Part shown: piece after piece, positions 1,275-58,704 of the stretch | How positions within the stretch are numbered: the first letter of the stretch is position 1 | Layout: each line of letters starts with the position of its first letter | IMG/VR virus record: IMGVR_UViG_3300016484_000424 | Location: 1 to 58,780 of that record | From: a virus | Lineage: Duplodnaviria > Caudoviricetes | Direction: 5' to 3' (one strand) | Length of the DNA stretch: 58,780 nt | Translations under genes and position numbers: made by a program | The notes under the pieces: generated by a model | Seen by the model: the letters and a program-made list of their open reading frames with translations, nothing else | The model's database searches: none | What the model was told of the DNA's origin: nothing

Positions 1275-1375
1275 GCGATGGCGATTTGAGCGCGCTATTC
1301 ACCCTGCTGGCAATACCTGTTGGCGGGGCGATTGCGGCGCTTGTGTTGTGGCTGATCTTGCGAGAGCGAGATTGA
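1271..1375 (+). CDS. Small single-TM protein
   Basis: ATGA overlap with the upstream gene; hydrophobic stretch; stops just before the attC. Confidence 0.55.
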   Translation: MSDGDLSALFTLLAIPVGGAIAALVLWLILRERD

Positions 1376-27672: not shown

Positions 27673-30600
27673 ATGGCTCGTGAAATTGAGTTGCACGATG
27701 GTACGGTCCTCGAATTTCCAGACAACACGCCGGATGACGTGCTGCTTCGCGTTGGCAAGCAGGAGACGCTGAAGCTCAACCAGTACAACACCGACGAAAC
27801 ATCGCGCCTTGCTGCGCGGGCCAATGCGGCGAAGGCTGATCCGGCGCCAGTTGCTGACGCGCCAGACAACTCGCCAGCGATGCCGATCGTGCCGTCATCG
27901 ACGCCATCGGTCTATGCCAACCCGGTGCAGCGCCTGCGGCGCATGGACAACCAGCAGCAGGCCGCGGCCACTGCGGCGACGCCACTGCTTGACCGGCCTG
28001 TTCCGGGCTATCAGCCATCGGGAGCCGACCTTGAGGCGATGTCCAATGCGCCGTCAGTGCTCCAGGCTGACGCGCGAGCCAAGCGGCCGTACCAAGAGGC
28101 CAAGCCGCTGACGTTTGCGCAAGAAGTCGCGGCCGACGTGGGCGACGTGGCGCGCAAGAACCCGCTGGCGGCTGGCGTAGTTGCTGGCTTCTCGGGTCTT
28201 GGCAAGGTTGGCGTGGGCGCCGTGCGCGCGGGAGCCGATCTGGTTGGTGCCGATGGCATCGCCAAATCAGCCGCTGGCGCGAGCCGCCTTGCCACCGACG
28301 TAGAGCAGCAGGCGACACGAGGCCTGGACGGCAATGCAAAGCTGGTGGCCGACGTTACCAGCTCGATCATCAACAGCGCGCCATCCCTGGCCATGGGCAT
28401 GATGGGCGGCCCCGCCCTGCGCACGCTGTTTGTCACTTCGGCGGCCAATGAGTACAACGCCGGCCGCGATGCTGGATTCAATGGCGCAGAGTCGGCGGCA
28501 CGCGCCGGCATCATGGGTGCGGCCGCGGCCATCGGCGAACGCTTTGGCTTTGCGCAGCAGATCGGCTTGCTCAAGGGCGCCATGAAGCGCATGCCGTCTG
28601 GCGACATGGCGAAGCTGCTGGGCCAGATGATCACCAACGAAGTGCCGGGCGAGCAGTTGACCACCGCCCTGCAGTTCCTGGCCGACAAGGCTGGCCCTGC
28701 GGCACTGAACCCGAATGCGACGGTTGAGGACTACCTCAAGGCCGCAGGCGAAACGTTGAAGGTCACGCTTGGCCAGTCGGCCGTCATGGGCGGCGGCCCG
28801 GTGGCAATCAACAAGGCGCGTGAAACACTGAAGCGGGTTGACTCTGGCTCGGGCGTGCGGGACATCCGCATTGCAGACGCCATCGACGCAGCCGAGCCCC
28901 CCAAGCGCCCGACCGAACTGCGCACCGAGCACATTGCCCGTGTTGACGACTTCGCGGCCACCCATGGCGTGCCGCCGACGGTGGTCAGCAAGATCAAGTC
29001 TGCACTGGACGGCGTGCCGCTGGCGCAACTGCCGCAGGCCACACGGGCGATTGTCTCGACCCTGGCCGAGCGCGGGATCATCCGGGCGCCGGTGGACGAG
29101 CAGACGCTGGCGAGCCTGGATGCGCCTGCACCGGTTCAGAGTGCGCCGAAGGATGCCATCCCGGCGGCCGACCTGATCGACCCGCAAGAGCCGAGCGCTC
29201 CACCGCCTGCCGACCCGCAGACCATTGCAGGCCCAGCCATCAACCGCAACTGGACGGCATTCAGCCCCGAGTCGGGCTCGCTGGGCATACCGCGCGACCA
29301 GATGCCGCAGATCCCGAACCGCGGCGCCCTGGCGAACTTCCTGGCCGCCAAGGGCATCGAGCGCCAGACCGGCATGGTGGACCCTTCGGAACTGAAGCCC
29401 ACGCAAGGCGAGTTCTCGCCTCAGAAGATCACGGAATCCGATTCCAGCCGATCGGTCATCGTTTCGAGCGACGGGTACATTCTGGATGGGCACCACCAAT
29501 GGCTGGCCCACTTGAACGACGGGGCGCCTGTCAGCGTCATCCGGTTCAACGCACCGATTCAGGATCTCCTGCGCTTGGCGCACCAGTTGCCGAGCAGCAC
29601 CACGGCCAAAGGGCCGACCATCAAGAAAGCCCAACCAGATGCAGGAACTGTTGACGGAAATGCTGGGCTTGGAGTTGATCAACCTGGAGCAGTTCAGCGA
29701 AGCGATGGCCTTCAGGATGTCCCCAGGGCTGATGCCGGAGCCGCTGCTGTTCCACCTGATGGGCGCCGAGAGCCTGATGGACCTGGACCCGGAAAGCGCG
29801 ACGATGCACTGACGCTGGACACGATCCAGCCGGGCGACATCACGCGGCCGGGTGGGGCGCCTTTCAGGACCATGGCAAATGCCATGTCGGCGCTGTCTCG
29901 CGCTGGCCAGGACACGCACGAGCTCGCAAGGGTCGAGGGCGGCTTGGTTGTCAGGGCGAAGAAGCAGGATCAGGGCGCTGCTGCGCCTGTAGGGGCCGGG
30001 AGTTCCCAGCCGTCGCCTGCTTCTTCGGCACCTGTTCGCGTCATCGCAGACGCTGGCCGCACGCGGGCTCAGGCGGTGCAGTTGGGCGTTGTTCCGAACG
30101 CTGACGGCTCCCTGACGCCCGTGATCGGCGGCGCACCGGTTCTGCAGAAGACCGGCGAGCCCGTGACCATCAAGCCTGATGCGACTGACCTTCAGATCAA
30201 GAAGGCTGTGCGCGAAGCAGGGACTGTGCCTGAGGCGGTGAAGTTCTACCCGCCTGCGGTGCAGGAGGAAGACGCGCCGCCAGCACCGAGGATCGACAAG
30301 GCGAAACTCGGCGCGATGACGGCTGACGAACTCGCCAGCGCTCATGAGACAGCGCGCGCCCACAACAAGGAAGTTGAGCGCATCGGCCTGAAGAAGTTCT
30401 TCGGCGCCGAGAAGGCCGACGAGTTGATGAAGCTGCCGCAACGCAGGCGCGACAAGTGGATGAGCGAGAACCTGACCGTCGAGCAAGACGACTGGATGCA
30501 GGCTCGCTATGCCAACGAGGACGATGTGCAGTCGTTCAAGACCACGGCGCATTCGTTCGACACGGAGAGCGCGGCCGCGCTTGGCCGATCCATCGCCGTG

Positions 30601-33600
30601 CCGTCACGCAAGGTCAACGATCCGGGGTTCTTCGATACCCCTGACGGCGCCATGGTGCGCAATGCCCTGAGGTACGCCAAGGCCCAGGGTTGGGACATGG
30701 ATGCGGTTGTCGGCGCGATGCGCGGCCGCGCTGCTGAGTGGGCCGGAGACGATGCGCCCGAGTTGTTCGGCCGTCTGTTCAAAGAGGCTGGAGTGAAGCT
30801 GCCGAGTGCAGCCATACCGAAGGCCATCGAAGCACCCACCACCAAGCCCGAGAGTGCGGTTCCAACTGGTGACCGCACCCAAGAACGCGCAGAGCACGCC
30901 GCCCTACTCGAAGAAGCAGGCATCACCAAGGAAGAGATCAATGCGCTCCATGGCACCGACATCACAGAAGCCCTCGCTGAATCTCCCGCCAAGGCTGAAG
31001 ACAAGCCCGCAGCGCGAAGCACTGAGGCAGGGGGCGCTGAGCAAGATCCGGGAGATGTCGCCGGAGAAGCGGCAGCGCCTGATGCTGCTGGAGGCCAAGA
31101 GGCGGGGCCTGACCGTGAAGGGCTGACCCTCACCACGCACACCACCGCCAAGGGCAAGACCCTTGAGGGCTACATCGTTGCTGTCAGCAAGGAGCGCGCG
31201 GCCGAGATCGACCCCTATACATTCCGCAAGGATGGGGGCTACTTCATCCGCAAGGCCCGTGCTGATGAACTGAGCAAGGAAGAACTTGCGGCCCTGGCTG
31301 ATGCGAAGCCTGTGGAGGCGGCAGCCAAGCCTGAAGCCGCGGAGCCGAAGGCAGAAGCCGAGCCCGAGAAGCCCAAGGCCAGCAAGACGGCCGCCATGCG
31401 TGCGGTGGCCCAGCGCGCCATCGAAGCCGCCCAGGCCGACCAGTCGCGCGACCGGAACACGAACACCGCGCGCCGTGCTGCAATGGCGAGTTCTGCGGAG
31501 TCTGACGCTCGCAAGCGCGAGGCAGTTGGCCGAACGATGCTGAACCTGGCTGACGCCATCGACAAGGGCGAAGCGCCTTTGCTGGAGGGCATCACTACGC
31601 GGGCACACGTTGAGGAACTGGACAGGGCGCTCACGGCGGCCATGTACGAGAGCGACCGAGGCTTGTCCTACGTGGAACAGCAGCGCCAGAAGGGCCGCGC
31701 GCCGGAAGAGCGCGACATCGCTAACGCCAAGATTGTGCAGCCGTCATGGAGCAATGGCGGTGCCAACAAGGAGAAACTGCGCGAAGCCATCAAGGGCAAG
31801 AAGGGTGTCCGCGAGGTCGAGAAGTTGCTGTTCGGCCCGCCGACTGCCGAGCTTCTGGCGGCCGTCAAGGCTATGGGCGTGTCCAAGAAGGACATTGACT
31901 ACGCTTTCGGCTGGTGGAACATCGAGGCGATTGCCCGCGTTCAGCGTCTTGCCAAGGTCGGCATCAAGACGAACGATGACTTGCGCGCTGCGCTGCGGCA
32001 GTACATTCAGTTCAAGGACGGCCCGAAGGCCGAAGACCCCATCAAGGCCCTGGAGCGCAAGTTGATCGGCTCCAAGGTGGGCTTTGACTTCTTCCCCACG
32101 CCCGCTGGCGTTGCCCAGCAGATGGTGCAACTGGCCGACATCAAGGCTGGCGACCGCGTGCTTGAGCCAAGCGCTGGCAACGGCAACATCGCTGACGCAG
32201 CCAAGGCCGCAGGCGCCAAGGTGGATGTCATCGAGATCAGCAGCCAATTGCGCGAGCTTCTGGAGGCCAAGGGCTACCCGGTTGTCGAGAACGACTTCAT
32301 GAAGTTCGAGCCCGCCGAGAAGTACGACGCGGTGCTGATGAACCCGCCCTTCAGCAACCGCCTGGACGCCGAGCACATCCGCCGCGCGTTTGGCATGGTG
32401 AAGCCCGGCGGCAAGGTCATCGCCATTGCTGGCGAAGGCGTCTTCAACGGCTCCGACGCGAAGGCCAAGGAGTTCCGCGACTGGCTGGACGAGGTTGGCG
32501 CAGTGGTCGAGAAGCTGCCCGAGAAGACCTTCACCGACTCCAAACTGCTGGCTCAGACTTCGACCAACGCACGGCTGATCACGATTGCGGCGCCTGCCGC
32601 ACAAGCCGCTGCCCCCAGTGCAACCACAGATGCACAGAAGGCTGCGAAGAGTGAGGAAGTTGCAGCAGAGCCAGCCAAGCCAGCAGCGCAGTCCAAGAAC
32701 TCCACAAATCTGTTTGAGGAGTTCATTGCGAGTTATGAGACTCCGCAAGAGGCTGGTGCCGCACGCAAAGCACTGGGCGCAACGGTGACTTGGAAAAACG
32801 GACTCACGGGGGCCTTGTCGGACCACATCCTTTCTGAGTATTCGGCTGGCGCCCGCGTTGTTCTGAGTGCCAGCGGGCCAGCGTTTGTCCACAAAGACAT
32901 GAAGGGATGGTCTAAGAGCAACATCGGCGCGTACGGCATGCAGTTTGCCAATTGGCTTTCGTCGCAAGACGATGTTGGAGCCAAGCCAGCAGCGCAGGCT
33001 GAGAAGGCCCTATTCAACACCAAGGATGATGGCTACACTGCGACCAATGAGTTCCAACCCGACTTCTCAGAGCCCGCAAGAGCAAACATCCGGCTGCTTA
33101 CTCGTGGAGTCGGAGGTCGGGCCAATACGGTTCATCCTTATGTCGGAAGAAGCGTATCAGCGGATGCGCCCATCAGCCTTGTGGCCCAGGCCATCGGAGC
33201 GCGAGTACAGTGGTTCGGAGTACGGAGCAGTCTGGACGCGCAAGACAAGCGTGACTTCGGATTCTTCAACGGCGCAACCATTGGCGACACCATCTTCCTT
33301 CGATCCGAAGGCGTTGACAGACCGCACCTGACGGTTCTGTTTCACGAGTTCGCGCACTACTTGCGGAAGACCGATCCGCAGGCTTACGCGGAACTGGTCG
33401 ATGCTGTTTCGCCATTCGTCAAGGTAGACAAGTACGAAGCGGAATTTCCGAATACGGCTGTGGCGCGCAACGTCAAGACGCCTGACGGAGTTCAAGAAGA
33501 GTTCATGGGCGAGGTGCTGTCTGACGCATCCATGAGCCCCAAGTTCTGGAGCGCCCTCGGCAAGAACAACCCCTCGCTGCTTCAGAAGGTGGCTGGCTTC

Positions 33601-36600
33601 ATCTTCGACATGATCAACAAGATCAAGGCGACGGTGGGCTACTCCAACAAGACCGAGAAGTACCTGAGCGACTTTGACCGGGTGATGGAGCTTGTGGGCG
33701 AAGTGCTGGCGAAGCACGACATCAAGCCCAGCAGTCTCAGGGGCATGGATGGCAAGCCGGTCTACAACCGCAAGGAAGACGAAACCCCTGTCACCTCGCA
33801 AGGCCGCCTGAAGTCCAAGGTCGGCGACATGATCAATTCCCACTTCGCTGGCACGATCAGCGGGTGGGACAAGACAGTGGGCACGCCGTACAACCTGGCG
33901 CAGCGCAGGCCTCAGTTCAAGCGGGTGTTTGATGGCCTGACGGACTTCATCAATGGGGTTTCGACCTTTGCGCATACCGCCGCTGACAAGGCGCCGACGT
34001 GGCTTCCAAGTCTGAACAGCGTCAGCGACTTCTTTGAGCGCCGCCCTGCGGACAGCAAATCATTGCTTCCATTCCGCATCAAGACCCCAGTGAAGCGCGA
34101 AGACAGCGATGCCGTGGCAAAGCCCATCTTCGAGGGCACCATCGCCTGGACCCGCGACGGCAAGGGCGAGCCCATCAAGATCGAAGAGGCCAAGGCCGCC
34201 GCCGAGAAGTTGAGCGTGGACGAGAAGGCCCGCGCGCTGCTGAAGGGCGGCCACGTCGCGCCGCGCGTGCTGAAGATGTGGCAGGGCCAGGAGCTCGACG
34301 CCTACGAGAAGATCATCGTCGGCAAGTACGAGCGCGACATGCTGGCTACCGGCATCGTCTTCACGCCCGACGAACTGAAGTCCATCTTCGGCCTGACGCC
34401 CAAGCAGATCGGGCTCTACAAGGAGTTCCACGCTGGTGTGGGCAAGAGCCTGGAGGACATGACGGTTTCGGCCATGCTGCGCGTTGGCGGCAAGGACACG
34501 GCAGACTTGCGCGAGCAGGCCCTGAAGATGTCCATGGACGATGCGGCCGAGTTGCTGCGCGACCGGATGTACGAACTGGCTGCCCAAGCATCTGGCAAGG
34601 CCAAGGAAGAGTTGGACGCCGCCGGCGACCAGATGATCGAACTGGCCGACAAGGTGAGCGCACTGAAGCGCCGCGGCTATGCCCCGCTGATGCGTTTTGG
34701 CGACCTGACCATCACGGCCTACGACAAGACCGGCGAGATGACCTACTTCGGCATGTACGAGGGCAAGGTCGAGCGCTTCACGGCCCTGCAGAAACTCAAG
34801 GCCGAGTTCCCTGAGGCAACCTTCAAGATGGGCTCAGTCTCCAAGGAAGAGTACAAGCAGTTCGCGGCCATCTCGCCCGAAACCCTTGAGCTCTTCGGCG
34901 ACATCATGGGCGACAAGCTGGGCTTCAACACCAGCGATCCGGTCTATCAGGAGTACCTGCGCAAGGCCAAGGCCAACAACTCGGGCATGAGGCGCCTGAT
35001 CCACCGCAAGGGCACGGCAGGCTACCGCGAAGAGCCGGCCCGCGTGCTGGCCTCGTTCATCTACTCCAATGCCCGGCAGACCTCGCGCAACCTGCACTCA
35101 GGCGACATCGCCCAGGCCATCGCCGACATTGACCGCGAAGAAGGTCAACTGAAGGACTACGCGATCAAGCTGGACGAGTACGTGCGCAACCCGCAGGAAG
35201 AGGCGCAAGCCATCCGTGGGCTGATGTTCGTCAACTTCATCGGCGGCTCGCTGGCCAGCGCTGCTGTCAACCTGACCCAGCCGTTTGCCGTCACCCTGCC
35301 CTACCTGCACGCCTTCGACGCCAAGGCCAGCCTCAGGATGAGCAACGCCCTGCGCGTGATGTGGTCCAAGAAGACCGGCAACACCAAACTGGACGCAGCC
35401 ATCGCAGAAGCCGAGCGCATCGGCATTCTGGATCCGCAGGAGATCCACCACCTACAGGCCCAGGCGCGCGGCGCCGAGCAACTGAAGTCTGGCAGGGGTG
35501 TGATCGGCAAGACCGCGGCCAAGGCCAGCAATTCACTTTCGCGCCTGATGGTCCTATGGGGCACGCCGTTCAGTCTGGCCGAGGCCTTCAACCGCCGCCT
35601 GACCTTCGTGTCGGCCGCGATGATCGCCATTCACAAGGGCATGGACCCAGTGGAGTTCGGCAAGAAGGCGATTGCGGAAACGCAGTTCGTGTATTCAAAG
35701 CACAACAACCCGGTATGGGCACGCGGCGCAGTCGGCGCAACCCTGTTCACCTTCAAGAAGTTCGGCGTCTCATGGATCGAAACCATGGTTCGCTTGGCCA
35801 ACTCCGGCCCGCAAGGTAAGGCCGCTGCGCTGGTCATGCTGGCCGCGCTGGTCATGCTGGCTGGTGTTGATGGCCTGCCCTTCCGCGAAGACCTTGAAGA
35901 CCTGATCGACGGCTTTGCCAACCGGGTGCTGGATCGCAACTTCCAGACGAAGGCATGGCGACACAAGCTGACCAAGCAAGTCTTCGGTGAGGGCTGGTCC
36001 AACTTCGTGAACAACGGGCTGTCGGGGCTGCCGGGATCGCCGATCGACGTGTCGGGTCGCTTGGGTATGCACAACCTGATTCCGATGACCGGCCTGATGG
36101 TAAAGAAGACGGACTACACCCGCGACGTGATGGAGATCACTGGCGCGGCCGGCGGCATCCTGAAGCAGTATGCTGAGGCAGCCGCTCTTCTTGCCGAAGG
36201 CGAAGTCTTGCGTACCGCGGCAAAGGCGTTGCCGATCGCAGGACAGAACATCCTCAAGGCGGCAGACATGGCGAACACTGGCGCCTACCGCGATGCTCGC
36301 GGGTACATCGTGACGAAGACGACGCCGGCCGAGGCCGCAGCCAAGGCGATTGGCTTCCAGCCGAAGTCGGTGGCCGATGAGCAGGAAGACAACTTCGGCC
36401 AGCAGCGCCGGATTGCCTTCGTCAAGATGGTTGAATCCGAGCTGGTCGAACGCATGGCGGCCGGCAAGTTCTTGAAGGATGAGGACATGTTCAAGGCAGC
36501 CAATGATCGCTTGGCCACATGGAACAAGGACAACCCGGACTCAGTGATCAAGATCGACGCCCGACAGATCATCGAGCGCGTGAAGAAGATGAACACGCCG

Positions 36601-36672
36601 AAGAACCAACGCATCATCCAATCCGCTCCGCGCGAAATGCGGGGCTCCGTTCAGGAGGCATTCCAGCGATGA
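27673..36672 (+). CDS. Giant polyvalent virion protein (PLxRFG family) with ParB-like, N6-MTase-like and zincin domains
   Basis: ILDGHHQW; FFPTP, VLEPSAGNG, NPPF; LFHEFAH; YAPLMRFG. Confidence 0.85.
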   Translation: MAREIELHDGTVLEFPDNTPDDVLLRVGKQETLKLNQYNTDETSRLAARANAAKADPAPVADAPDNSPAMPIVPSSTPSVYANPVQRLRRMDNQQQAAATAATPLLDRPVPGYQPSGADLEAMSNAPSVLQADARAKRPYQEAKPLTFAQEVAADVGDVARKNPLAAGVVAGFSGLGKVGVGAVRAGADLVGADGIAKSAAGASRLATDVEQQATRGLDGNAKLVADVTSSIINSAPSLAMGMMGGPALRTLFVTSAANEYNAGRDAGFNGAESAARAGIMGAAAAIGERFGFAQQIGLLKGAMKRMPSGDMAKLLGQMITNEVPGEQLTTALQFLADKAGPAALNPNATVEDYLKAAGETLKVTLGQSAVMGGGPVAINKARETLKRVDSGSGVRDIRIADAIDAAEPPKRPTELRTEHIARVDDFAATHGVPPTVVSKIKSALDGVPLAQLPQATRAIVSTLAERGIIRAPVDEQTLASLDAPAPVQSAPKDAIPAADLIDPQEPSAPPPADPQTIAGPAINRNWTAFSPESGSLGIPRDQMPQIPNRGALANFLAAKGIERQTGMVDPSELKPTQGEFSPQKITESDSSRSVIVSSDGYILDGHHQWLAHLNDGAPVSVIRFNAPIQDLLRLAHQLPSSTTAKGPTIKKAQPDAGTVDGNAGLGVDQPGAVQRSDGLQDVPRADAGAAAVPPDGRREPDGPGPGKRDDALTLDTIQPGDITRPGGAPFRTMANAMSALSRAGQDTHELARVEGGLVVRAKKQDQGAAAPVGAGSSQPSPASSAPVRVIADAGRTRAQAVQLGVVPNADGSLTPVIGGAPVLQKTGEPVTIKPDATDLQIKKAVREAGTVPEAVKFYPPAVQEEDAPPAPRIDKAKLGAMTADELASAHETARAHNKEVERIGLKKFFGAEKADELMKLPQRRRDKWMSENLTVEQDDWMQARYANEDDVQSFKTTAHSFDTESAAALGRSIAVPSRKVNDPGFFDTPDGAMVRNALRYAKAQGWDMDAVVGAMRGRAAEWAGDDAPELFGRLFKEAGVKLPSAAIPKAIEAPTTKPESAVPTGDRTQERAEHAALLEEAGITKEEINALHGTDITEALAESPAKAEDKPAARSTEAGGAEQDPGDVAGEAAAPDAAGGQEAGPDREGLTLTTHTTAKGKTLEGYIVAVSKERAAEIDPYTFRKDGGYFIRKARADELSKEELAALADAKPVEAAAKPEAAEPKAEAEPEKPKASKTAAMRAVAQRAIEAAQADQSRDRNTNTARRAAMASSAESDARKREAVGRTMLNLADAIDKGEAPLLEGITTRAHVEELDRALTAAMYESDRGLSYVEQQRQKGRAPEERDIANAKIVQPSWSNGGANKEKLREAIKGKKGVREVEKLLFGPPTAELLAAVKAMGVSKKDIDYAFGWWNIEAIARVQRLAKVGIKTNDDLRAALRQYIQFKDGPKAEDPIKALERKLIGSKVGFDFFPTPAGVAQQMVQLADIKAGDRVLEPSAGNGNIADAAKAAGAKVDVIEISSQLRELLEAKGYPVVENDFMKFEPAEKYDAVLMNPPFSNRLDAEHIRRAFGMVKPGGKVIAIAGEGVFNGSDAKAKEFRDWLDEVGAVVEKLPEKTFTDSKLLAQTSTNARLITIAAPAAQAAAPSATTDAQKAAKSEEVAAEPAKPAAQSKNSTNLFEEFIASYETPQEAGAARKALGATVTWKNGLTGALSDHILSEYSAGARVVLSASGPAFVHKDMKGWSKSNIGAYGMQFANWLSSQDDVGAKPAAQAEKALFNTKDDGYTATNEFQPDFSEPARANIRLLTRGVGGRANTVHPYVGRSVSADAPISLVAQAIGARVQWFGVRSSLDAQDKRDFGFFNGATIGDTIFLRSEGVDRPHLTVLFHEFAHYLRKTDPQAYAELVDAVSPFVKVDKYEAEFPNTAVARNVKTPDGVQEEFMGEVLSDASMSPKFWSALGKNNPSLLQKVAGFIFDMINKIKATVGYSNKTEKYLSDFDRVMELVGEVLAKHDIKPSSLRGMDGKPVYNRKEDETPVTSQGRLKSKVGDMINSHFAGTISGWDKTVGTPYNLAQRRPQFKRVFDGLTDFINGVSTFAHTAADKAPTWLPSLNSVSDFFERRPADSKSLLPFRIKTPVKREDSDAVAKPIFEGTIAWTRDGKGEPIKIEEAKAAAEKLSVDEKARALLKGGHVAPRVLKMWQGQELDAYEKIIVGKYERDMLATGIVFTPDELKSIFGLTPKQIGLYKEFHAGVGKSLEDMTVSAMLRVGGKDTADLREQALKMSMDDAAELLRDRMYELAAQASGKAKEELDAAGDQMIELADKVSALKRRGYAPLMRFGDLTITAYDKTGEMTYFGMYEGKVERFTALQKLKAEFPEATFKMGSVSKEEYKQFAAISPETLELFGDIMGDKLGFNTSDPVYQEYLRKAKANNSGMRRLIHRKGTAGYREEPARVLASFIYSNARQTSRNLHSGDIAQAIADIDREEGQLKDYAIKLDEYVRNPQEEAQAIRGLMFVNFIGGSLASAAVNLTQPFAVTLPYLHAFDAKASLRMSNALRVMWSKKTGNTKLDAAIAEAERIGILDPQEIHHLQAQARGAEQLKSGRGVIGKTAAKASNSLSRLMVLWGTPFSLAEAFNRRLTFVSAAMIAIHKGMDPVEFGKKAIAETQFVYSKHNNPVWARGAVGATLFTFKKFGVSWIETMVRLANSGPQGKAAALVMLAALVMLAGVDGLPFREDLEDLIDGFANRVLDRNFQTKAWRHKLTKQVFGEGWSNFVNNGLSGLPGSPIDVSGRLGMHNLIPMTGLMVKKTDYTRDVMEITGAAGGILKQYAEAAALLAEGEVLRTAAKALPIAGQNILKAADMANTGAYRDARGYIVTKTTPAEAAAKAIGFQPKSVADEQEDNFGQQRRIAFVKMVESELVERMAAGKFLKDEDMFKAANDRLATWNKDNPDSVIKIDARQIIERVKKMNTPKNQRIIQSAPREMRGSVQEAFQR

Positions 36673-38519: not shown

Positions 38520-39176
38520 CTACCGCTTCAGCAGCACCGTAGCCACGCCAATGTTCCCGATCACCGCCCCGCCGATCAAAAGCTTGTCGGACTGTATCAA
38601 GACGCCGGACCCAGTTGAGTTTGGTGCGCCGCATGGCGCCGGCCCGAGATTGAGTGTCAGGCGGTAGAAGTTCTTGCCGGAGGGGTCAGGAGCCACGGAG
38701 CCAGTGGCAGTACAGCCAGCATTTACGCCAACGAGAGCGCCGGAACTCGAAATCGTCACAGTGCCACCTCCATCCGGCGTGTAGGTGCCAGCAATATTGG
38801 CGAGGCTTGCGGCCGTGTCGTAACCCGGAAAGTAGGTCAACGTCAGCGGTCCTGTGACGCCGAGGGCGGAAACGGTGCCGGCGATTTTTGACTTCTCGGT
38901 GATCGTCCCGGTCAGAGTTCCGGGGATGGCGAGAGGTGGGGCGTACGCATTGAATTGTCCGCTGAGGGAGGACCCAGAAACAGAGATGTTCCCGGCCAGC
39001 AAGTACGGGCTGTTTCCCGAGACGCCAACAGCCCAGAACTCGCCAGTGTTGGCAATCAACACACCGAGATTATCAGAATCCCAGAACCCTTCGGCAGAAG
39101 CCGCAGCGTCTCCACCGCCACCGCCGCCGCACCCGGCCAACGCCACGGCAAGCGCTGCAATCACTCGTTTGATCAT
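38520..39176 (-). CDS. Lipoprotein (moron)
   Basis: MIKR..ALAVALAG-C-GGGGGG lipobox; beta-rich. Confidence 0.8.
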   Translation of the reverse strand: MIKRVIAALAVALAGCGGGGGGDAAASAEGFWDSDNLGVLIANTGEFWAVGVSGNSPYLLAGNISVSGSSLSGQFNAYAPPLAIPGTLTGTITEKSKIAGTVSALGVTGPLTLTYFPGYDTAASLANIAGTYTPDGGGTVTISSSGALVGVNAGCTATGSVAPDPSGKNFYRLTLNLGPAPCGAPNSTGSGVLIQSDKLLIGGAVIGNIGVATVLLKR

Positions 39177-39384
39177 GTTCTCTCCCGTTGTTTCGGCAGG
39201 GCTTTGAACAGCGCCGCCCCACCACAAGGCGCAAAGCATTATGTGGCCTGCTAGGCCGTGTTTGCCTTCAGGGACTGGCGGGGTTGAGCTTCACGAGCAA
39301 TTCCCCGGCGCCATCACGCGCGGCATACCGGCATTAGGCTTGCTTCTGCGATTGTTGTTATCCGTCATTTTTGCTGTGTCATGG

Positions 39385-39424
39385 GTGTTAGCGGCGCAAT
39401 TTGTCGCCCTAAATCAAGTTAGGC
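39385..39424 (+). mobile_element. attI-like site heading cassette array L
   Basis: TGTTAGCGGCGCAATTTGTCGCCCTAAATCAAG/TTAGGC vs attI1 TGTTACGCAGCAGGGCAGTCGCCCTAAAACAAAG/TT (recalled); no attC hairpin here. Confidence 0.75.
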
Positions 39425-39706
39425 CCGCTCATACGCAGCACGCAAGCGGGCCAAGTGCTCTTGGTTCATGTGGCCGTCGTCGAGGATGTCGGCAACCGCG
39501 GCCAGCAGTTCGGAGCCTGTGCGCTTGTCTGGCAGCACTTCCACACCCGCCACCTCGCGGTAGTCATAGGCGCCGTTCCGGTCCAGGCCGCCACCACGAA
39601 GCACGCTCTCCAACTCCTGGCACTCAGCATCTACGGTTTCCAGGCTCTCGGTAGCCAGCCCGGTTCCGCGATCAAGCTCGCGGCGGCGTATCACAAATCG
39701 AAGCAT
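39419..39706 (-). CDS. Hypothetical protein, cassette L1
   Basis: AGGAG RBS; stop falls in the core site. Confidence 0.75.
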   Translation of the reverse strand: MLRFVIRRRELDRGTGLATESLETVDAECQELESVLRGGGLDRNGAYDYREVAGVEVLPDKRTGSELLAAVADILDDGHMNQEHLARLRAAYERA

Positions 39707-39733
39707 GTTGATCTCCTAGGTTGTTGCGTGCCG

Positions 39734-39794
39734 GCCTAACAGGGCAATAGATCAGACCGGGCCGCGCCCGGCTCGCTCATCGCCAGCGTTAGGC
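39734..39794 (+). mobile_element. attC-like site L1 (61 bp)
   Basis: GCCTAAC-agggc-AATAGATC...GCTCATC-gccagc-GTTAGGC; L boxes imperfect. Confidence 0.8.
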
Positions 39795-40168
39795 CGCAGG
39801 GCCAGCATCGCTGCGCGGTACTGTTCGGTCTGCAGACGTTTCAGCGGTTCCTCGTTGCGCTTCAGCGCGCACCAAGCCACAGCGCCCGCCCACCCCCATT
39901 GCTCAACCGCTGCGCGCACTTCCTTCGCCTCGTGCGGCTCAAGCGCGCAGGCATCGGCGCTGGCGTAGTAAAAGGTGTCGTTGCAGTTCACGGCCGCGTG
40001 CCATCCATCATCCCAATCGCATATGCCCGAGTTGTAAGTGCCGAAGAAAACGTAGTTCCGCGCAGCTAGCCAAAACAGGTGCTCGCAGTCCTCCAGCGTC
40101 AGCGGCCTAACAGGTCGCTCAAGCGGGACCGCGTCGGCGCGGCTGCGTTGGTTTGCTTCGTCACTCAT
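39752..40168 (-). CDS. Hypothetical protein, cassette L2
   Basis: AAGGAGG RBS and start lie inside attC L2; NCNDTF.YA.ADA motif; ends inside attC L1. Confidence 0.8.
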   Translation of the reverse strand: MSDEANQRSRADAVPLERPVRPLTLEDCEHLFWLAARNYVFFGTYNSGICDWDDGWHAAVNCNDTFYYASADACALEPHEAKEVRAAVEQWGWAGAVAWCALKRNEEPLKRLQTEQYRAAMLALRPNAGDERAGRGPV

Positions 40169-40206
40169 GGCTCGCGCCTCCTTGTCCGGTTAGCTTTGCG
40201 TTATGC
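40105..40206 (+). mobile_element. attC-like site L2 (102 bp)
   Basis: GCCTAAC-aggtc-GCT(C)AAGC...GGTTAGC-tttgc-GTTATGC. Confidence 0.85.
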
Positions 40207-40470
40207 ATGCTCGAAGACATGGAACACCAGAGCGCCACCATGCGTTTGGTATGTGCCGATGAATCGCCCGATGATGTCTGGCAGATCAGGCATTGGCTTG
40301 ACCGTGCCATAGGTGGAAAACGCGCGCGATTCTGTCGGCGCCGTTTCATCAACAAGCGCCCACAGTTGCGGATCGCCGCCTTGCATCTGCACGCTCAGAA
40401 CTTCGGCGCCGCGCGGCATCAGCAATTCCTGATAGTCGGTTACCTGAAGGGTCCATTTCCAAATCCTCAC
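40201..40470 (-). CDS. Conserved small phage protein, cassette L3
   Basis: IWK..L.....Q...MP.GA.VLSVQ.Q....LWALVD...FIGT.Q...G.LVFHVFE. Confidence 0.8.
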   Translation of the reverse strand: MRIWKWTLQVTDYQELLMPRGAEVLSVQMQGGDPQLWALVDETAPTESRAFSTYGTVKPMPDLPDIIGRFIGTYQTHGGALVFHVFEHA

Positions 40471-40491
40471 GGCTCACTCCTTGCCATCAAT

Positions 40492-40578
40492 GCATAACAT
40501 CTAGCTGCAACAGACGCGCTGCAGCATTTGGGTTAATCGGTGCGTCCAGCGGGCGCGCTGTTGAGCATGGCGTTAGGC
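40492..40578 (+). mobile_element. attC-like site L3 (87 bp)
   Basis: GCATAAC-atcta-GCT(G)CAAC...GTTGAGC-atggc-GTTAGGC. Confidence 0.9.
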
Positions 40579-40865
40579 GGCTCGTGGCGCGCGGGCGGCC
40601 ATGCAGCGCGCGGGCTTTCGGCGTTGTCGGCCTCCATTGCCACCATCAGCGCAATCAGGGCTTCGCGGGTTCGCATCGAACGGCCGCCGCCAGCGCCGCC
40701 AGCGCAAAACTCCACCGTGCTGGTGTGAACTTGGCTGCCCATGCCCGTGCCGGTAACGGCCAGCACTACATCGCCGTCGTCCTGCAAATGCAGGACCATC
40801 TGGTGGTCGCCTGCAGGCCCCATATCGCCGCATCGTCCTACCGTCCGTTTCTTCGGCCATTCCAT
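40533..40865 (-). CDS. Hypothetical protein, cassette L4
   Basis: VEFC..G.GGGRS..TR.AL..L..AM..DN motif; C-terminus runs into attC L3. Confidence 0.75.
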   Translation of the reverse strand: MEWPKKRTVGRCGDMGPAGDHQMVLHLQDDGDVVLAVTGTGMGSQVHTSTVEFCAGGAGGGRSMRTREALIALMVAMEADNAESPRAAWPPARHEPPNAMLNSAPAGRTD

Positions 40866-40899
40866 CGCTCTCGCCCTTTCGTGCCTTCGTTCACCAGCC

Positions 40900-40997
40900 G
40901 CATAACACGTCGCTCAACACGAGCGCCAACGGGTCACGGCCTTTGCTCCTGTCCAGTCCTTCCCGCCGCTGGCTCCGTGTTAGCTCCAACGTTAGGC
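40900..40997 (+). mobile_element. attC-like site L4 (98 bp)
   Basis: GCATAAC-acgtc-GCT(C)AACA...TGTTAGC-tccaac-GTTAGGC. Confidence 0.9.
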
Positions 40998-41348
40998 CTT
41001 ACCGGGCCGCGCACGGGCAAAAGCTCCCACGCAGCTCGTGTCGCTCTTGGCCTGCTGCCTGAGTTCGGCCGCCGTGGTCACGCGCGGCTTGCTTCGGTGC
41101 TTGGCCGCTACCGCTTCAAGTTCTCGCGGCGTCACCGGCGCATTCATGTAGCCGCCCGCGTAGTCAGCGAGCGCCATGCGCAGTATCTGGTGCGCCTCGC
41201 GCCCTTCCGCGATCCGCACAACTTCCGGGGAGCGGTTTAGCAGCGCCACGGCTTGGCACACTGCAGCGTGCAGCGCTTCGGCGGCAGCAGGCCTAACCCC
41301 TCGGTCAACGGCGACACCTGCCGGCTGGTCACTCTTGCTCATCTTCAA
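40992..41348 (-). CDS. Hypothetical protein, cassette L5
   Basis: AGGAG RBS and start lie inside attC L5; stop falls in the core. Confidence 0.7.
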   Translation of the reverse strand: MKMSKSDQPAGVAVDRGVRPAAAEALHAAVCQAVALLNRSPEVVRIAEGREAHQILRMALADYAGGYMNAPVTPRELEAVAAKHRSKPRVTTAAELRQQAKSDTSCVGAFARARPGKA

Positions 41349-41391
41349 TCTCCTGTAGCGCCGCCGTCAGCGGCTCAACTCTGCGTTAGAA
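41291..41391 (+). mobile_element. attC-like site L5 (101 bp)
   Basis: GCCTAAC-ccctc-GGTCAACG...GCTCAAC-tctgc-GTTAGAA; L boxes pair poorly (possible hybrid). Confidence 0.7.
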
Positions 41392-41853
41392 CTCACCCTC
41401 CGCCACCTGGAAGCATGGCACGCCGGCAGCGCGCCACATCTTCACCATCCGGTCGCGGTCCTCAAACACTGCCACCAGCCGCGCCTTGTCGCTGACCAGC
41501 ATGTCGTCAAGCCAGCGCTTCTTGAGCACGTCGTCTGGTGTGTAGTCGCCGGCCTTGCGCATGGTCAACATCGGGCCTTCCAACTCCCAAGACATGAAGG
41601 TCGTCTTGTCGGCCAGCCACTTGACCGTCTGCGTCCGCACCTCATCGCTGCGCCCGCTGAAAATCCAGATGTCGGCCCCCGCATGGCGCAGCCGTTCCAT
41701 CGTGTCGATAACAGGGTCGTTCGGGAGGTCGTCCGCGCACGCGGCGTAAAACGCTTTCCAATCTTGTTCGCCGCGCGGGCGCTCCACGTACTTGCGGCGG
41801 TGCTCAATCAGCGCCAGGGTGCCGTCAAGATCAAAGATGTACAGAGGTCTCAT
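41386..41853 (-). CDS. HAD-family phosphatase (PNKP 3'-phosphatase-like)
   Basis: IFDLDGTL, SGR, MR..GD..PD..LK, FEDR..V.MWR..G.PCFQVA. Confidence 0.85.
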   Translation of the reverse strand: MRPLYIFDLDGTLALIEHRRKYVERPRGEQDWKAFYAACADDLPNDPVIDTMERLRHAGADIWIFSGRSDEVRTQTVKWLADKTTFMSWELEGPMLTMRKAGDYTPDDVLKKRWLDDMLVSDKARLVAVFEDRDRMVKMWRAAGVPCFQVAEGEF

Positions 41854-42797
41854 TTCGCGCCCCTCCGCTGCCAAGCCACCCAGCCCAGCCCCAGCAGCAT
41901 CAATGCCCACTCGGCAGGCTCTGGCACTGGCGCCACCGGCACAGCCGAGTCAGGCAGTTTCACCGGCTCTGGAACTGGTGCAACCGGCGCCCCAGGCGCA
42001 GGCGACATCACTGCATCACCGATGATCGGCGTCACCTTCTTCGCATCGATCACCATCGGCGCCACGCCCGGAACCGGCGCGAACGTCAGCACTGAAGGCG
42101 TGGCAGCAAACGCCACCGGCTGCACCCACAGCGGACCCAGGAGCGGCGCGGGCAGGGTCGGCCAGTAGATCGGTACAGCAGGCGGCAAGAGAGGTCGCCA
42201 AGTGTCTTCCGGCGTGTCCAACTCTTGGTTGCCATCGGGGATCGGCTCAGGCGCAGACAGCCGCGCGAATGATTGCCTCGGCACGGCATCGGCAACCGGT
42301 CCCGGCGTCACATCAGGCACGCTCACCGGCACGGCCACTGGCAGCGGCGGGACCAGCGCGGGCGGGGCTTCTGTCGTCAGGCTGGGCGGCGGTGAGATGC
42401 GATTGCCTCGGGTGATGAGGCTTACATTCCGGCAGACACTCGGGACCGCAATCGACCACTCGCCTACCGTGTAGATGAGCGCCCGCTCGCCGGTGTCCTT
42501 GGGCGCCCACATGCTGGTGTTGACAATGCCGCACAGCTTCGAGCCGTTCCCGAAGTGCATCATTCGCAGCGGGCCATATTCCCACGTTGCAGACGCGATC
42601 CCGGCGCTGGTGATGTGCGCTGTGTCGTCGTACTGGCGTGCGCGCATCTTGGCTTTCAGCGCCTCGCGGGTGGGCTTCGGAATCTGCGTGTAGGTGTCCA
42701 CAGCCGAAGGCAGATCGCCCATGTAGGGATCTAGGCCGCGGTCGGACCAATTGCACGTTGCAGTGATTGCCGCAGCGGCGGCTAGGGTGAGGATCAT
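41850..42797 (-). CDS. MHFG-family PEP-CTERM protein
   Basis: C.W...G.DPYMG, MHFG, VPSVCRNVS; C-terminal VPEP.EWALMLLGLGWVAWQRR. Confidence 0.85.
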   Translation of the reverse strand: MILTLAAAAAITATCNWSDRGLDPYMGDLPSAVDTYTQIPKPTREALKAKMRARQYDDTAHITSAGIASATWEYGPLRMMHFGNGSKLCGIVNTSMWAPKDTGERALIYTVGEWSIAVPSVCRNVSLITRGNRISPPPSLTTEAPPALVPPLPVAVPVSVPDVTPGPVADAVPRQSFARLSAPEPIPDGNQELDTPEDTWRPLLPPAVPIYWPTLPAPLLGPLWVQPVAFAATPSVLTFAPVPGVAPMVIDAKKVTPIIGDAVMSPAPGAPVAPVPEPVKLPDSAVPVAPVPEPAEWALMLLGLGWVAWQRRGAK

Positions 42798-52102: not shown

Positions 52103-52650
52103 TCCGGGTTGGTCTTTTCTATGGCGAAGAGATCCGCCCGATACCTTCTCTTGAAGGGCGCTATTCAGTCACCTCGTTCGGGCGCGTTTTTTCGCACGTC
52201 TACCGTCATCGTCAATTCACGCAAGAGCTTGCTCAATCCATTCACCCTGAAGGTTATCGCAAAGTCAAGCTGTCGGCCATTGATCCAAATAGCCCGATCT
52301 CGGTTCACAGACTCGTTGCGCGTGCATTCCATCCAAACCCGCTGAACTTGCCACAGGTCAACCACATTGATGGCCACAAGGGAAACAACCAAGCAAGCAA
52401 CCTTGAATGGGTAGACAACTCTGGTAATCAGCGCCATGCCTTCGCGCACGGGCTTCAACCAAGGCGGGCAGGAGAGAAGCATCCCGGTGCAATCTTGACT
52501 GAGGATCAGGTCCGTCAGATCAAGGTCGAGCTTCAGCGCATCCCGCCGTTTAAGGGCCAGCAGACTGACTTGGCTGCGCGGTATGGCGTGACGAACTATT
52601 GCATCCACGATATTGCGCGTGGCCGCTCTTGGGGGCACGTCAATGTCTGA
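52099..52650 (+). CDS. NUMOD4-HNH homing endonuclease
   Basis: EG.Y.V.S.GRV.S, VHRLVA.AF.PNP..LPQVNHIDG.K.NN..SNLEW. Confidence 0.9.
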   Translation: MIRVGLFYGEEIRPIPSLEGRYSVTSFGRVFSHVYRHRQFTQELAQSIHPEGYRKVKLSAIDPNSPISVHRLVARAFHPNPLNLPQVNHIDGHKGNNQASNLEWVDNSGNQRHAFAHGLQPRRAGEKHPGAILTEDQVRQIKVELQRIPPFKGQQTDLAARYGVTNYCIHDIARGRSWGHVNV

Positions 52651-54154
52651 TCTTGTTCTGCGCGCAGCGCAGCAGCAGGTAATTGATGACGTGGCTGCGG
52701 CTTTCCGTGTCGGTCACAAGCGAGTGCTCGTGTCTGCTTTCTGCGGATTTGGGAAGACGGAGCTTGCAACAGCAATGCTCTTGGCCACGCACAAAAACGG
52801 GAAGCGCGGCGCGTTTGTGGCAGACCGCCGAGCGCTGGTTGAGCAGACGAGCGAGCGATTTGATAGGTACGGTCTCGCGCACGGAATCATGATGGCCGAC
52901 CATCCGCGCTTCCAACCGAGCCAACTGATTCAGGTTGTCTCTGCCCAGACAGTTCAGCGGCGCAAATGGCCTGCTGCGAACTTGATCATGGTGGATGAAT
53001 GCCATGTCTTGCTTGAGACGGTCAAGGCGAAGTTGTTGGCTCGTGACTGCTACGCAGTCGGGCTCTCGGCGACGGCGATAACCAAGGGTCTTGCCAACTA
53101 TTTTGACGTGGTGGTGAATGCGCCGCCAGCCAATCGAATGATTGAGCAGGGCTTGCTTGTCCCGCTTGAGATATACGAGTGCCAAGCGCCGGACATGGAG
53201 GGTGCGCCTGTCAAAGCTGGCGAGTGGGATTCGGGCGAGACTGAGAAGCGCGCCCTGCAAGTTGTTGGTGATGTCGTCAGCGACTACTTGGAGAGCGGCG
53301 GCGGAGAGCAGTTCATTTGCTTTGCGACATCCATTGCGCACGCCGAGGAACTTGCTAGGCAGTTTCTCGCGGCTGGTGTCAATGTCGCCACATACACGGC
53401 AAATGACCAGCCAGAGGACCGCTCTGACATTGTTCAAGAGTTCAAGAAGGCTGACAGTTCGTTGCGCGGGCTCATCAGTGTCTCTGCGTTAACCAGGGGG
53501 TTTGACGCACCGCAAGTCTCACTTCTCATCATGGCCCGCCCATTGCGGAAAGCCTGCCATGAGTTCATCCAGATGCTGGGCCGCGTGATGCGTACATCCC
53601 AGGCAACCGGCAAGGTGCGGGCTCGTGTGCATGACCACTCGGGGAACGTCCGCCGTTTCTGGAAACAGATGCAGGATCTGTTCGAGAACGGCGTCACCGA
53701 GCTTGACGACGGCAAACCAAAGCCCAAGGACGAGTCTTCCGAGAAAGCGGAAGCCGAACCTGTGAAGTGCCCGAGTTGCAAGGCAATCCACAAACCTGCG
53801 CAGTTCTGCCCGAATTGCGGCCACGAGTACCCGAAGCGCCTCTCGGTTCAGCATGTGCCCGGAACCCTGAAGGAGTTGATCGCCGGCGGATTCACGAAGC
53901 AGCTTGACCGCGACATCTTCCCGCAGGTTGCTGCCTATGCGCTTTCCAGGCGCGAGGGCGATGCCGCAAGACGCATGGCCCAGGGGATCTACAAGGACAT
54001 GACGGGTGACTGGGCCAAGGTCAAGTGGGAGAACGTGACGCCGGTACAGCCGACACCCGAGGTCATTCAGAAGATCCGCGCCATGCAGTTGCGCTTTGCG
54101 AAGCGCCGCGAGGCGGCAGCACGTCACGAGGCAGCAAGGGCGGTGGCCGCATGA
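52643..54154 (+). CDS. SF2 (DExH) helicase
   Basis: GFGKT, DECH, LSAT, GFD.P, QMLGRVMR, C-terminal Zn ribbon. Confidence 0.9.
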   Translation: MSDLVLRAAQQQVIDDVAAAFRVGHKRVLVSAFCGFGKTELATAMLLATHKNGKRGAFVADRRALVEQTSERFDRYGLAHGIMMADHPRFQPSQLIQVVSAQTVQRRKWPAANLIMVDECHVLLETVKAKLLARDCYAVGLSATAITKGLANYFDVVVNAPPANRMIEQGLLVPLEIYECQAPDMEGAPVKAGEWDSGETEKRALQVVGDVVSDYLESGGGEQFICFATSIAHAEELARQFLAAGVNVATYTANDQPEDRSDIVQEFKKADSSLRGLISVSALTRGFDAPQVSLLIMARPLRKACHEFIQMLGRVMRTSQATGKVRARVHDHSGNVRRFWKQMQDLFENGVTELDDGKPKPKDESSEKAEAEPVKCPSCKAIHKPAQFCPNCGHEYPKRLSVQHVPGTLKELIAGGFTKQLDRDIFPQVAAYALSRREGDAARRMAQGIYKDMTGDWAKVKWENVTPVQPTPEVIQKIRAMQLRFAKRREAAARHEAARAVAA

Positions 54155-57868: not shown

Positions 57869-58122
57869 CCGGCGAGCGCCCCACCGGATCAATCCCCGGA
57901 GTCGTCATCAGCGCCGTCATCACCGAAGGCCTGCGCATCAGCGTGGATGGCCGCCCTGCCCGGCTGGCGATCATCAGCGACGACGGGCAGATCGTGGACG
58001 ACAGCCCGCGCGTGGCCCAAGAAGTCGAGTCGGCTGCGATCAACAGCTACCGGAGCTTCCAGCGTGGGGCTGGGCATCTGGTGGTGAGGGCGGGTAACGC
58101 CCGAGTTCAGCCGCTGCCGTAG
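57865..58122 (+). CDS. Hypothetical protein ending inside attC R1
   Basis: ATGA overlap; reads through GGTAAC. Confidence 0.6.
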   Translation: MTGERPTGSIPGVVISAVITEGLRISVDGRPARLAIISDDGQIVDDSPRVAQEVESAAINSYRSFQRGAGHLVVRAGNARVQPLP

Positions 58123-58149
58123 GCAGTCGGCTGGAACGAAGTGTTAGGC
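58092..58149 (-). mobile_element. attC-like site R1 (58 bp)
   Basis: Minus strand GCCTAAC-acttc-GTT(C)CAGC...GCTGAAC-tcgggc-GTTACCC. Confidence 0.9.
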
Positions 58150-58175
58150 CACCCGTAACCGAAGCGAGGAAGACG

Positions 58176-58622
58176 ATGATTGAACTGATGGAAGAAACCG
58201 CAAACATGATGCGCGGCATGTGCATGGACCCACGCATTCCAAAGGACACCAAGGAAGCGCTTTGGTCGCGCATCAGCAAGCTGGACGCGGCCACCGAAGC
58301 GGCGGCGGACGACAAGGCTGGAGAACCTGTAAGCAGCGCTTACGAGTTGAAGCCGGCCGCCTGGATCGACAACAGCGGCCACCCGCACCACCTGAACCAC
58401 ATTCAGGGCGTGCGTGAGCGACAGTTGTACGGCCCGCTGCGGCCCCTGTACGACGAGCAGGCGATGTGGAACGCCTGCGCGCGGGCCGAAGGCATAGGGC
58501 GCGACCAGATCAAGGCGCGACTGCTGGAATTGCACGAGGCGCACAAGCACCAGCACAACTACTTTGCGTGGGCTGTGCAGGAGTTGTTTGTGGCGCGCCG
58601 CTTTAGCGGACGAGTGGCCTAA
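58176..58622 (+). CDS. Hypothetical protein, cassette-borne
   Basis: GAGG RBS; stop falls in GCCTAAC. Confidence 0.75.
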   Translation: MIELMEETANMMRGMCMDPRIPKDTKEALWSRISKLDAATEAAADDKAGEPVSSAYELKPAAWIDNSGHPHHLNHIQGVRERQLYGPLRPLYDEQAMWNACARAEGIGRDQIKARLLELHEAHKHQHNYFAWAVQELFVARRFSGRVA

Positions 58623-58704
58623 CGCCAGGTTAAGCGGCGCCCCGCGCTGACAGGGGCAAGACGCGCGGACGCCCCTGGGCGTCCGCTTGAACCGACAGTT
58701 CGGC
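58617..58704 (-). mobile_element. attC-like site R2 (88 bp)
   Basis: Minus strand GCCGAAC-tgtcg-GTT(C)AAGC...GCTTAAC-ctggc-GTTAGGC; L boxes match those I recall for the aadA1 attC. Confidence 0.92.

Follow-up and report, generated by a model that had tools for sequence, protein, structure and literature searches.

Can a phage that lacks an integrase gene possess a dedicated site for the capture of gene cassettes? Among gene-capture platforms, integrons contribute most to multidrug resistance, and a phage contig raises this question at position 39418, where a GTTAGGC core adjoins an array of cassettes. The window, by which we mean the whole 58,780-nt stretch analysed here, is an IMG/VR record of 58,780 bp that is classed as linear with a completeness estimate of 89%. 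The habitat of the phage that it encodes is probably freshwater.

The original prediction read the start of the array as an attI1-like site, composed of TGTTA (39386-39390), GTCGCCCTAAATCAA (39403-39417) and GTTAGGC (39418-39424). We observed all three elements at these coordinates. The core at 39418 belongs to no attC hairpin, as had been claimed: there was no complementary xxxxAAC partner 47-157 nt upstream, and the segment 39340-39428 folded no better than shuffled sequences on either strand (z +0.58 and +0.40). The imperfect inverted repeat RYYYAAC...GTTRRRY, the hairpin and the extrahelical bases that define an attC site are thus missing from the site at 39418. The attI1 letters used in the prediction agreed with attI1 of plasmid R100 (L001:14330-14400, minus strand). 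The 11-mer GTCGCCCTAAA is common to the window site and attI1, and the gap between TGTTA and GTCGCCC is 12 bases in both (16 when counted from the G of GTTA). Before TT, the window site is one base shorter (CAAG versus CAAAG in attI1).

The site extends to the left of its earlier coordinates, beginning at 39356 with a DR2-like box. This box, TGTTATCCGTCATT (39356-39369, plus strand), is identical at 13 of 14 positions to the DR2 box of a site on another phage contig, L032, and its TGTTAT is invariant when the window, attI1 and L032 are aligned. The DR1-like box, TGTTAGCGG (39386-39394, plus strand), lies at the same distance from GTCGCCC as in attI1, and its GTTAGCGG is identical to DR1 of two integrase-linked sites, L071 and L072. 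The L-side box and spacer, TGTCGCCCTAAATCAA (39402-39417, plus strand), contain GTCGCCCTAAA, which is the same in attI1 and L032; TGTCG of this box is nearly invariant among 22 aligned sites. The R box, G/TTAGGC (39418-39424, plus strand), has its crossover between 39418 and 39419. Its GTT is invariant in the 22-site alignment, and the GTTAGGC core also forms the R' box of the attC sites E1, E3 and E4. Overall, the three-way alignment contained 30 invariant columns, and TGTTAT, TGTTA, GTCGCCCTAAA, CAA and GTTA were in register with attI1 of R100. Over the 12 nt that separate DR1 from the L box, the site was identical to attI1 at 0 of 12 positions, showing that the boxes have been kept and the spacers have not.

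The window site therefore resembles attI1 (In2/Tn21 on R100, NC_002134) in its four-box layout, with two GTTA direct repeats, an L box of GTCG type that precedes G/TTRRRY by 10-13 nt, and an R core. It is also like attI1 in the identical GTCGCCCTAAA, in the distance from DR1 to the L box and in its position ahead of co-oriented attC sites, the first cassette following directly after G/TT. The two differ in the L box (AAC in attI1, ATC in the window), in the gap between DR2 and DR1 (~11 nt longer in the window) and in the L-R spacing, shortened in the window by the base noted above. attI1 adjoins intI1, whereas no divergently placed integron-integrase gene lies beside the window site. Cassette genes lead away from attI1 and face the site in the window. 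The site is thus not attI1 proper, which would be nearly identical to the 65-bp attI1 and stand beside intI1; only the boxes are common.

We asked whether this likeness could be due to chance. Upon local alignment of a 70-nt attI1 stretch to both strands of the whole window, the site at 39418 scored best (28, with the second match at 24). The runner-up is an unrelated exact 12-mer of attI1 elsewhere in the window, so the 11-mer alone is not significant. When scoring against attI1 was anchored on the crossover, 39418 on the plus strand ranked first among 1439 GTT sites on both strands (12 versus 9, z 6.8); with attI1 and L032 together as references it scored 26, and the next site 14. Of the five TGTTA occurrences on the plus strand of the 58,780 nt, two are at 39356 and 39386, 62 and 32 nt to the left of the crossover. 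A regular expression for the family architecture had a single match in the window, at 39387. Judged by these comparisons, the attI1 likeness at 39418 is beyond chance, with position and register being decisive. The exact site was not found elsewhere: an 18-mer search of viral contigs and a 22-mer pattern ending in RRRY in metagenome contigs each gave 0 matches, and nothing among GenBank phages resembled the window site. The 22-mer also matched one genome contig, from a Terriglobia MAG, inside an 866-aa ORF; we dismissed this match as chance. In both the genome and the metagenome contigs, the RRRY ending would let empty sites ending in TTAGAA escape.

The minus-strand genes of the array point at the site, which would make 39418 the tail if gene direction were the guide, but polarity is set by the attC sites. 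Extrahelical bases of integrons are reported to sit on the AAC arm of the attC top strand (Nivina 2016, PMC5027507). In constrained folds, E1-E4 had single-base bulges on the 5' arm of the plus strand; E3 and E4 had two bulges 7 nt apart, as the aadA1 attC of R100 does on its coding strand. All ten attC sites of the window, so oriented, aligned with the aadA1 attC. We checked the rule on 31 attC-like elements upstream of intI, and 30 of them bulged on the 3' arm of intI's strand, the remaining one having conflicting overlapping calls. The bulge asymmetry therefore identifies the plus strand as the top strand and 39418 as the true head of the array. As predicted, the site is of attI type, homologous to attI1, correctly oriented at the array head, with its crossover at 39418/39419. 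With five attC sites in 39734-41391, five more in a second array and no integron integrase nearby, the arrays correspond to CALINs (at least two attC sites, no integron integrase nearby). The hairpin detector gave false positives at window 1242-1325, 52453-52554 and 52919-53041, and missed E2, E5 and F1. Calling gene strands by GC at codon positions was dropped, having miscalled E1 and F2 relative to Pfam/PHROG matches and ribosome-binding sites.

The first array consists of five plus-strand cassettes with minus-strand genes. Cassette 1 (39419-39788) carries ORF1 (39419-39706), which has its TAA stop in the opening three bases of the cassette and a ribosome-binding site ahead of its ATG, and attC E1 (39734-39794), with a 5'-arm bulge on the plus strand. 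Cassette 2 (39789-40200) carries ORF2 (39752-40168) and attC E2 (40105-40206), whose 5'-arm bulge on the plus strand is a C. Cassette 3 (40201-40572) carries ORF3 (40201-40470), which matches DUF7352 (Pfam E 5.9e-25) and phrog_3848 (PHROG E 1.1e-19), and attC E3 (40492-40578), with its two 5'-arm bulges. Cassette 4 (40573-40991), with ORF4 (40533-40865) and attC E4 (40900-40997), is a mobile unit that is also present in phage contig L008. Cassette 5 (40992-41385) carries ORF5 (40992-41348) and attC E5 (41291-41391), whose 3' half is irregular. ORF2 and ORF5 start within the loops of their own attC sites, an arrangement that is only sensible if attC precedes the gene inside a cassette. At these two starts (40105-40168 and 41291-41348), the core GTTAGGCC is read in one frame as Val-Arg-Pro. 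The tail junction G/TTAGAA (41385-41391, plus strand) overlaps the TAA stop of a PNKP-phosphatase gene (41386-41910, minus strand), the tail-side neighbour of the array. A search with this gene found five distant loci (34-58% aa identity), and the two inspected had no adjacent array. In the distant relative L003 (58% aa), the gene ends in the same ...TTCTAAC with no array.

In both window arrays, all genes are encoded by the attC bottom strand, and three of them have family support (DUF7352/phrog_3848, DUF4406/phrog_355 and PAPS reductase/phrog_424). The attC orientation of the first array is classical; its genes are reversed and transcribed toward attI. We observed the same reversed arrangement in L008, L015, L017, L038 and L039. 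Upstream of intI, PHROG matches were found for 16 of 65 ORFs on intI's strand and for 1 of 73 on the opposite strand; this test covered all 138 ORFs of at least 60 aa in seven of nine prepared integrase loci (the 32 ORFs of L045 and L065 were omitted), and part of the ORFs lie outside cassettes. The controls aadA1 of R100, the aadA cassette of L031, the L032 cassette and the attC of phage TJE1 (1016-1075) all had the classical orientation. With the operon read toward attI and its genes on the bottom strand, a classical cassette inserted at the site would be antisense.

The second array spans the ends of the contig (58092-58780 and 1-1429), its top strand is the minus strand, and both contig ends fall inside it. 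Its left part (58092-58704) contains attC F0 (58092-58149) and F1 (58617-58704), with 3'-arm G/T bulges on the plus strand. Its right part (13-1429) contains F2 (13-105), F3 (440-496) and F4 (1377-1429) with plus-strand cassette genes, a DUF4406 gene (phrog_355, 143-445) and a PAPS-reductase-like gene (phrog_424, 519-1274). The head of this array (~1823, minus strand) ranked 319 of 1439 GTT sites and was rejected as attI-like. PAPS-reductase-like (phrog_424) cassettes recur in three phage arrays (window 519-1274, L046:2087-2857 and L058:1070-1822).

We then looked for relatives of the site. The pattern TGTTA-N12-GTCGCCCTAAA-N-CAA occurred on three viral contigs, two of which carry the clinical attI1 of class 1 integrons; the third is phage contig L032. 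There, a diverged attI1-like site is followed by a classical cassette, no integron integrase is present within the 21-kb record, and the matches to the window are collinear in two separate boxes. Elsewhere on L032 (9784-12939), a LAGLIDADG/homing-endonuclease (intein-like) segment splits the GpA terminase large subunit. Searching with ORF1 brought up L039, which is record G005, a 41.9-kb phage with a completeness estimate of 92%. Its genes include those for terminase, head, tape measure, endolysin, primase and its own phage integrase. This temperate phage carries a complete integron beside the phage integrase (L041:4015-9900), with IntI, attI and at least three attC sites, flanked by the endolysin gene on one side and by HNH, primase and terminase genes on the other. 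Its IntI scored 427 bits on TIGR02249 (cut-off 265) and is identical to IntI1 at 170 of 315 positions (54%). Relatives of this IntI (54-100% identity) were found at 30 viral loci (L044-L073), one of which is L039's own contig.

Most of these 30 loci have a recognisable attI of one common architecture directly upstream of intI: two GTTA...GACA repeats, GG-TGTCG and then ~11 nt ending in AAG/TT. Eighteen integrase-adjacent sites align with the window site, attI1, L032 and the L008 array head, giving the 22-site alignment, so that the same box architecture stands directly beside a genuine integron integrase on at least 18 viral contigs. L059 and L061 are identical or near-identical to L060 on the integrase/attI side and differ from it right after G/TT, which marks the family's working crossover and reflects cassette turnover there. 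The phage-borne complete integrons (L039/G005 and 29 more viral loci) are like the window in attI architecture, in reversed cassettes, in their slot at the end of the early operon and in cassette families such as PAPS reductase. They differ in that intI adjoins attI and in the L-side box, which reads xxGAATTxAAG and in the window is the attI1-like CCCTAAATCAAG. The proposed kinship with the class 1 lineage holds as far as attI1 homology goes; the closest integrase-bearing relatives of the site are on phage contigs and not in clinical class 1 integrons. Just upstream of one phage integron array (L047:8-1076), we observed Avd-like and reverse-transcriptase ORFs, which are parts of a diversity-generating retroelement.

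The head of the L008 array (4719, minus strand) was tried as a further attI1-like site and rejected: it ranked 87 of 239 GTT sites, and its local alignment score of 18 against the window intergenic region was equalled in 203 of 500 shuffles. It has an 11-mer and a 9-mer in common with the attI of L039 and fits the 22-site alignment. Non-coding sequence beside this head (L008:4760-4860, minus strand) contains repeats of GGTGTCGTGATAA, which also occur in the first intI codons of L063, L071 and L072. These repeats may be the vestige of a lost integrase gene.

We observed that cassette 4 is 99.3% identical (416/419) to its counterpart in L008, an unrelated phage, from crossover to crossover, while its flanks are identical at 31 of 50 and 26 of 49 positions (about 55-62%). 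In the freshwater metagenome run X1, which may be the source and is the only run containing the phage (X2 and X3 contain next to nothing), a 430-nt unitig covering 40570-40999 had a depth of 24.4, compared with 14.9 and 13.7 on its two sides, and was joined at both ends by other contigs in the graph. An apparent joint in X1 from 40703 to 39107 was rejected as cross-matching of GC-rich sequence, given its low depth and the unrelated sequence between its two sides. We observed no branch at 39418 in X1, where it lies within a single unbranched contig. By this sequence evidence, at least one cassette of the window array has moved recently between phages. Such near-identity (99.3%) of a cassette in two unrelated phages directly attests site-specific cassette traffic between phages. 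The original prediction had proposed access to a class 1-like cassette pool. Its attI-type site stands; the wider proposal has to be qualified, since there is no integrase, classical cassettes would be antisense, and the pool seen consists of phage-type genes common to other phages.

We assessed whether the phage encodes an integrase. The window has virion genes (P22-type portal, capsid and terminase), replication and recombination genes (an Erf/exonuclease pair, primase, helicase and Holliday-junction resolvase), a ParB-like protein and an antirepressor. A 2999-aa virion-type ORF (27673-36672) is DNA-methyltransferase-like in its middle domain and matches giant phage proteins (phrog_11358) in its C-terminal part. 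Pfam and PHROG scans detected no integrase of any kind in the 58.8-kb contig, and the integron integrase profile TIGR02249 had no match. A tblastn search with IntI1 of R100 for a remnant gave a best E of 9, and comparison of 23 phage IntI proteins with the window gave no meaningful match, blastn returning nothing at E<=1. The non-coding stretch 39177-39355, the slot occupied by intI in the complete relatives, holds no integrase remnant; it is adjoined by a lipoprotein-like gene (38520-39176, minus strand), a search with which found no phage relatives. Because the contig ends fall within the second array, about a tenth of the genome, possibly with an integrase, is unseen. A betaproteobacterial link had also been proposed; as to a betaproteobacterial host, the sole hint is that the nearest cultured relative of the capsid belongs to an Achromobacter phage (46% aa identity), a weak hint of a Burkholderiales host.

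Overall, our data suggest, with a probability of roughly 65%, that 39356-39424 is an orphan attI, the double-stranded site at which an integron primarily recombines; it would be a diverged member of the attI1 family, used by an IntI1-like integrase in trans. Against this stand the lack of an integrase in the contig, the altered L box and spacings, the irregular E5, the unbranched contig across 39418 in X1 and the absence of the exact site from any other record. Much the same features speak for the main rival, a relic, which would be a true attI by descent that became inactive after intI was lost or replaced, or that was copied in with cassettes, leaving the array frozen. Neither intI nor a remnant is present, the L box has changed from AAC to ATC, the L-R spacer is shortened and the DR2-DR1 gap lengthened, the tail attC E5 is irregular, and the sole run containing the phage has no variant at 39418. 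We consider such a relic rather unlikely. With its intact binding boxes and randomised spacers (0/12), the site looks like one that selection has maintained; recent movement between phages is seen for at least one of the array's cassettes; and attI sites are, according to Qi 2023 (PMC9892861), routinely used in trans in assays.

Chance would account for the attI1 likeness if the array had entered an ordinary GTT, one overlapping the PNKP stop, through attC x genome recombination. Integrase-mediated cassette insertion is reported to occur at GWT sites throughout genomes (Loot et al. preprint 10.1101/2022.09.11.507474), L003 shows the right half TTAGAAC to be native, having it with no array, and the 11-mer is not significant on its own in the window. 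Such an attG-type secondary site is nevertheless very improbable, given the first rank among 1439 GTT sites with a wide margin, two of five TGTTA boxes at the site, collinear L032 matches in two boxes and the fit to the 22-site family alignment. The GTT at the cut is present together with a full set of attI boxes, where attG sites are described in that preprint as needing only GWT and weak flanking motifs; insertion at G/TT outside a classical integron with no nearby integrase is common to both. On sequence alone, the first insertion may have taken the attG route. Still harder to credit is that the TGTTA boxes are operator or promoter elements of the downstream lipoprotein-like gene and unrelated to recombination. 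The site does lie in a 242-nt intergenic region upstream of that gene on the same transcribed strand, yet 39177-39424 contains no promoter-like or terminator-like site, and the homologous sites directly adjoin integrase genes.

To return to the orphan attI, the data establish sequence homology, position, orientation, family membership and the mobility of one cassette, and from these we infer that an integrase may bind the site, that catalysis may occur in trans and that 39418 may be active today. The junction at 39418/39419 with the first of five plus-top-strand cassettes is the product expected of integrase-catalysed attI x attC exchange. Since the phage has no integrase, any activity of the site requires such an enzyme to act in trans. 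An IntI1-like integrase, encoded by the host or a co-resident phage, would bind the four boxes, including the TGTCGCCCTAAAT box, and pair the attI site with a folded attC bottom strand. Single-strand exchange would then take place at G/TT (39418/39419), and replication would resolve the junction. The early-left operon runs from the PNKP gene toward attI, so that new cassettes would enter at its promoter-distal end and only those in the reversed orientation would be expressed. Such an orientation lock-in would explain a phage-specific cassette pool. It counts against the orphan reading that attI sites are reportedly recognised only by their cognate integrase (PMC2095811).

Comparable elements have been described. 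The CALIN of Shewanella prophage M16-3, as reported by Qi et al. 2023 (PMC9892861), is likewise an integrase-less, attI-headed attC array in a phage-derived element. It differs in having a Shewanella-type attI within an inactive prophage that also has a complete integron, while the window has an attI1-family attI on a free phage contig with no integrase. Tetrasphaera phage TJE1 and other virulent phages with CALINs in the same report have attC arrays within their genomes, like the window. The one attC detected in TJE1 bulges on the 5' arm of the coding strand and is thus classical, whereas the window is reversed and has an attI. We found no description in the literature of such reversed phage arrays or of orphan attI1-like sites; the supplements of Qi 2023 may add cases.

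The window site, L032 and the integrase-linked sites place attI1 within a wider attI family on phage genomes, which bears on where the class 1 platform and attI1 came from. They also expose arrays in which all genes lie on the attC bottom strand, and the window phage is a concrete example of how cassettes could be loaded with a borrowed integrase. As a tentative proposal, which we hold to be possible though short of probable, environmental phages may own an integron lineage, with an integrase ~54% identical to IntI1, an attI homologous to attI1 and cassettes reversed so that early transcription reads toward attI/intI. The window phage would then be an integrase-less client that keeps a working attI at which the integrases of co-resident phages or hosts load phage cassettes, and the clinical class 1 platform may be a branch of this phage-borne family or may have exchanged attI with it.
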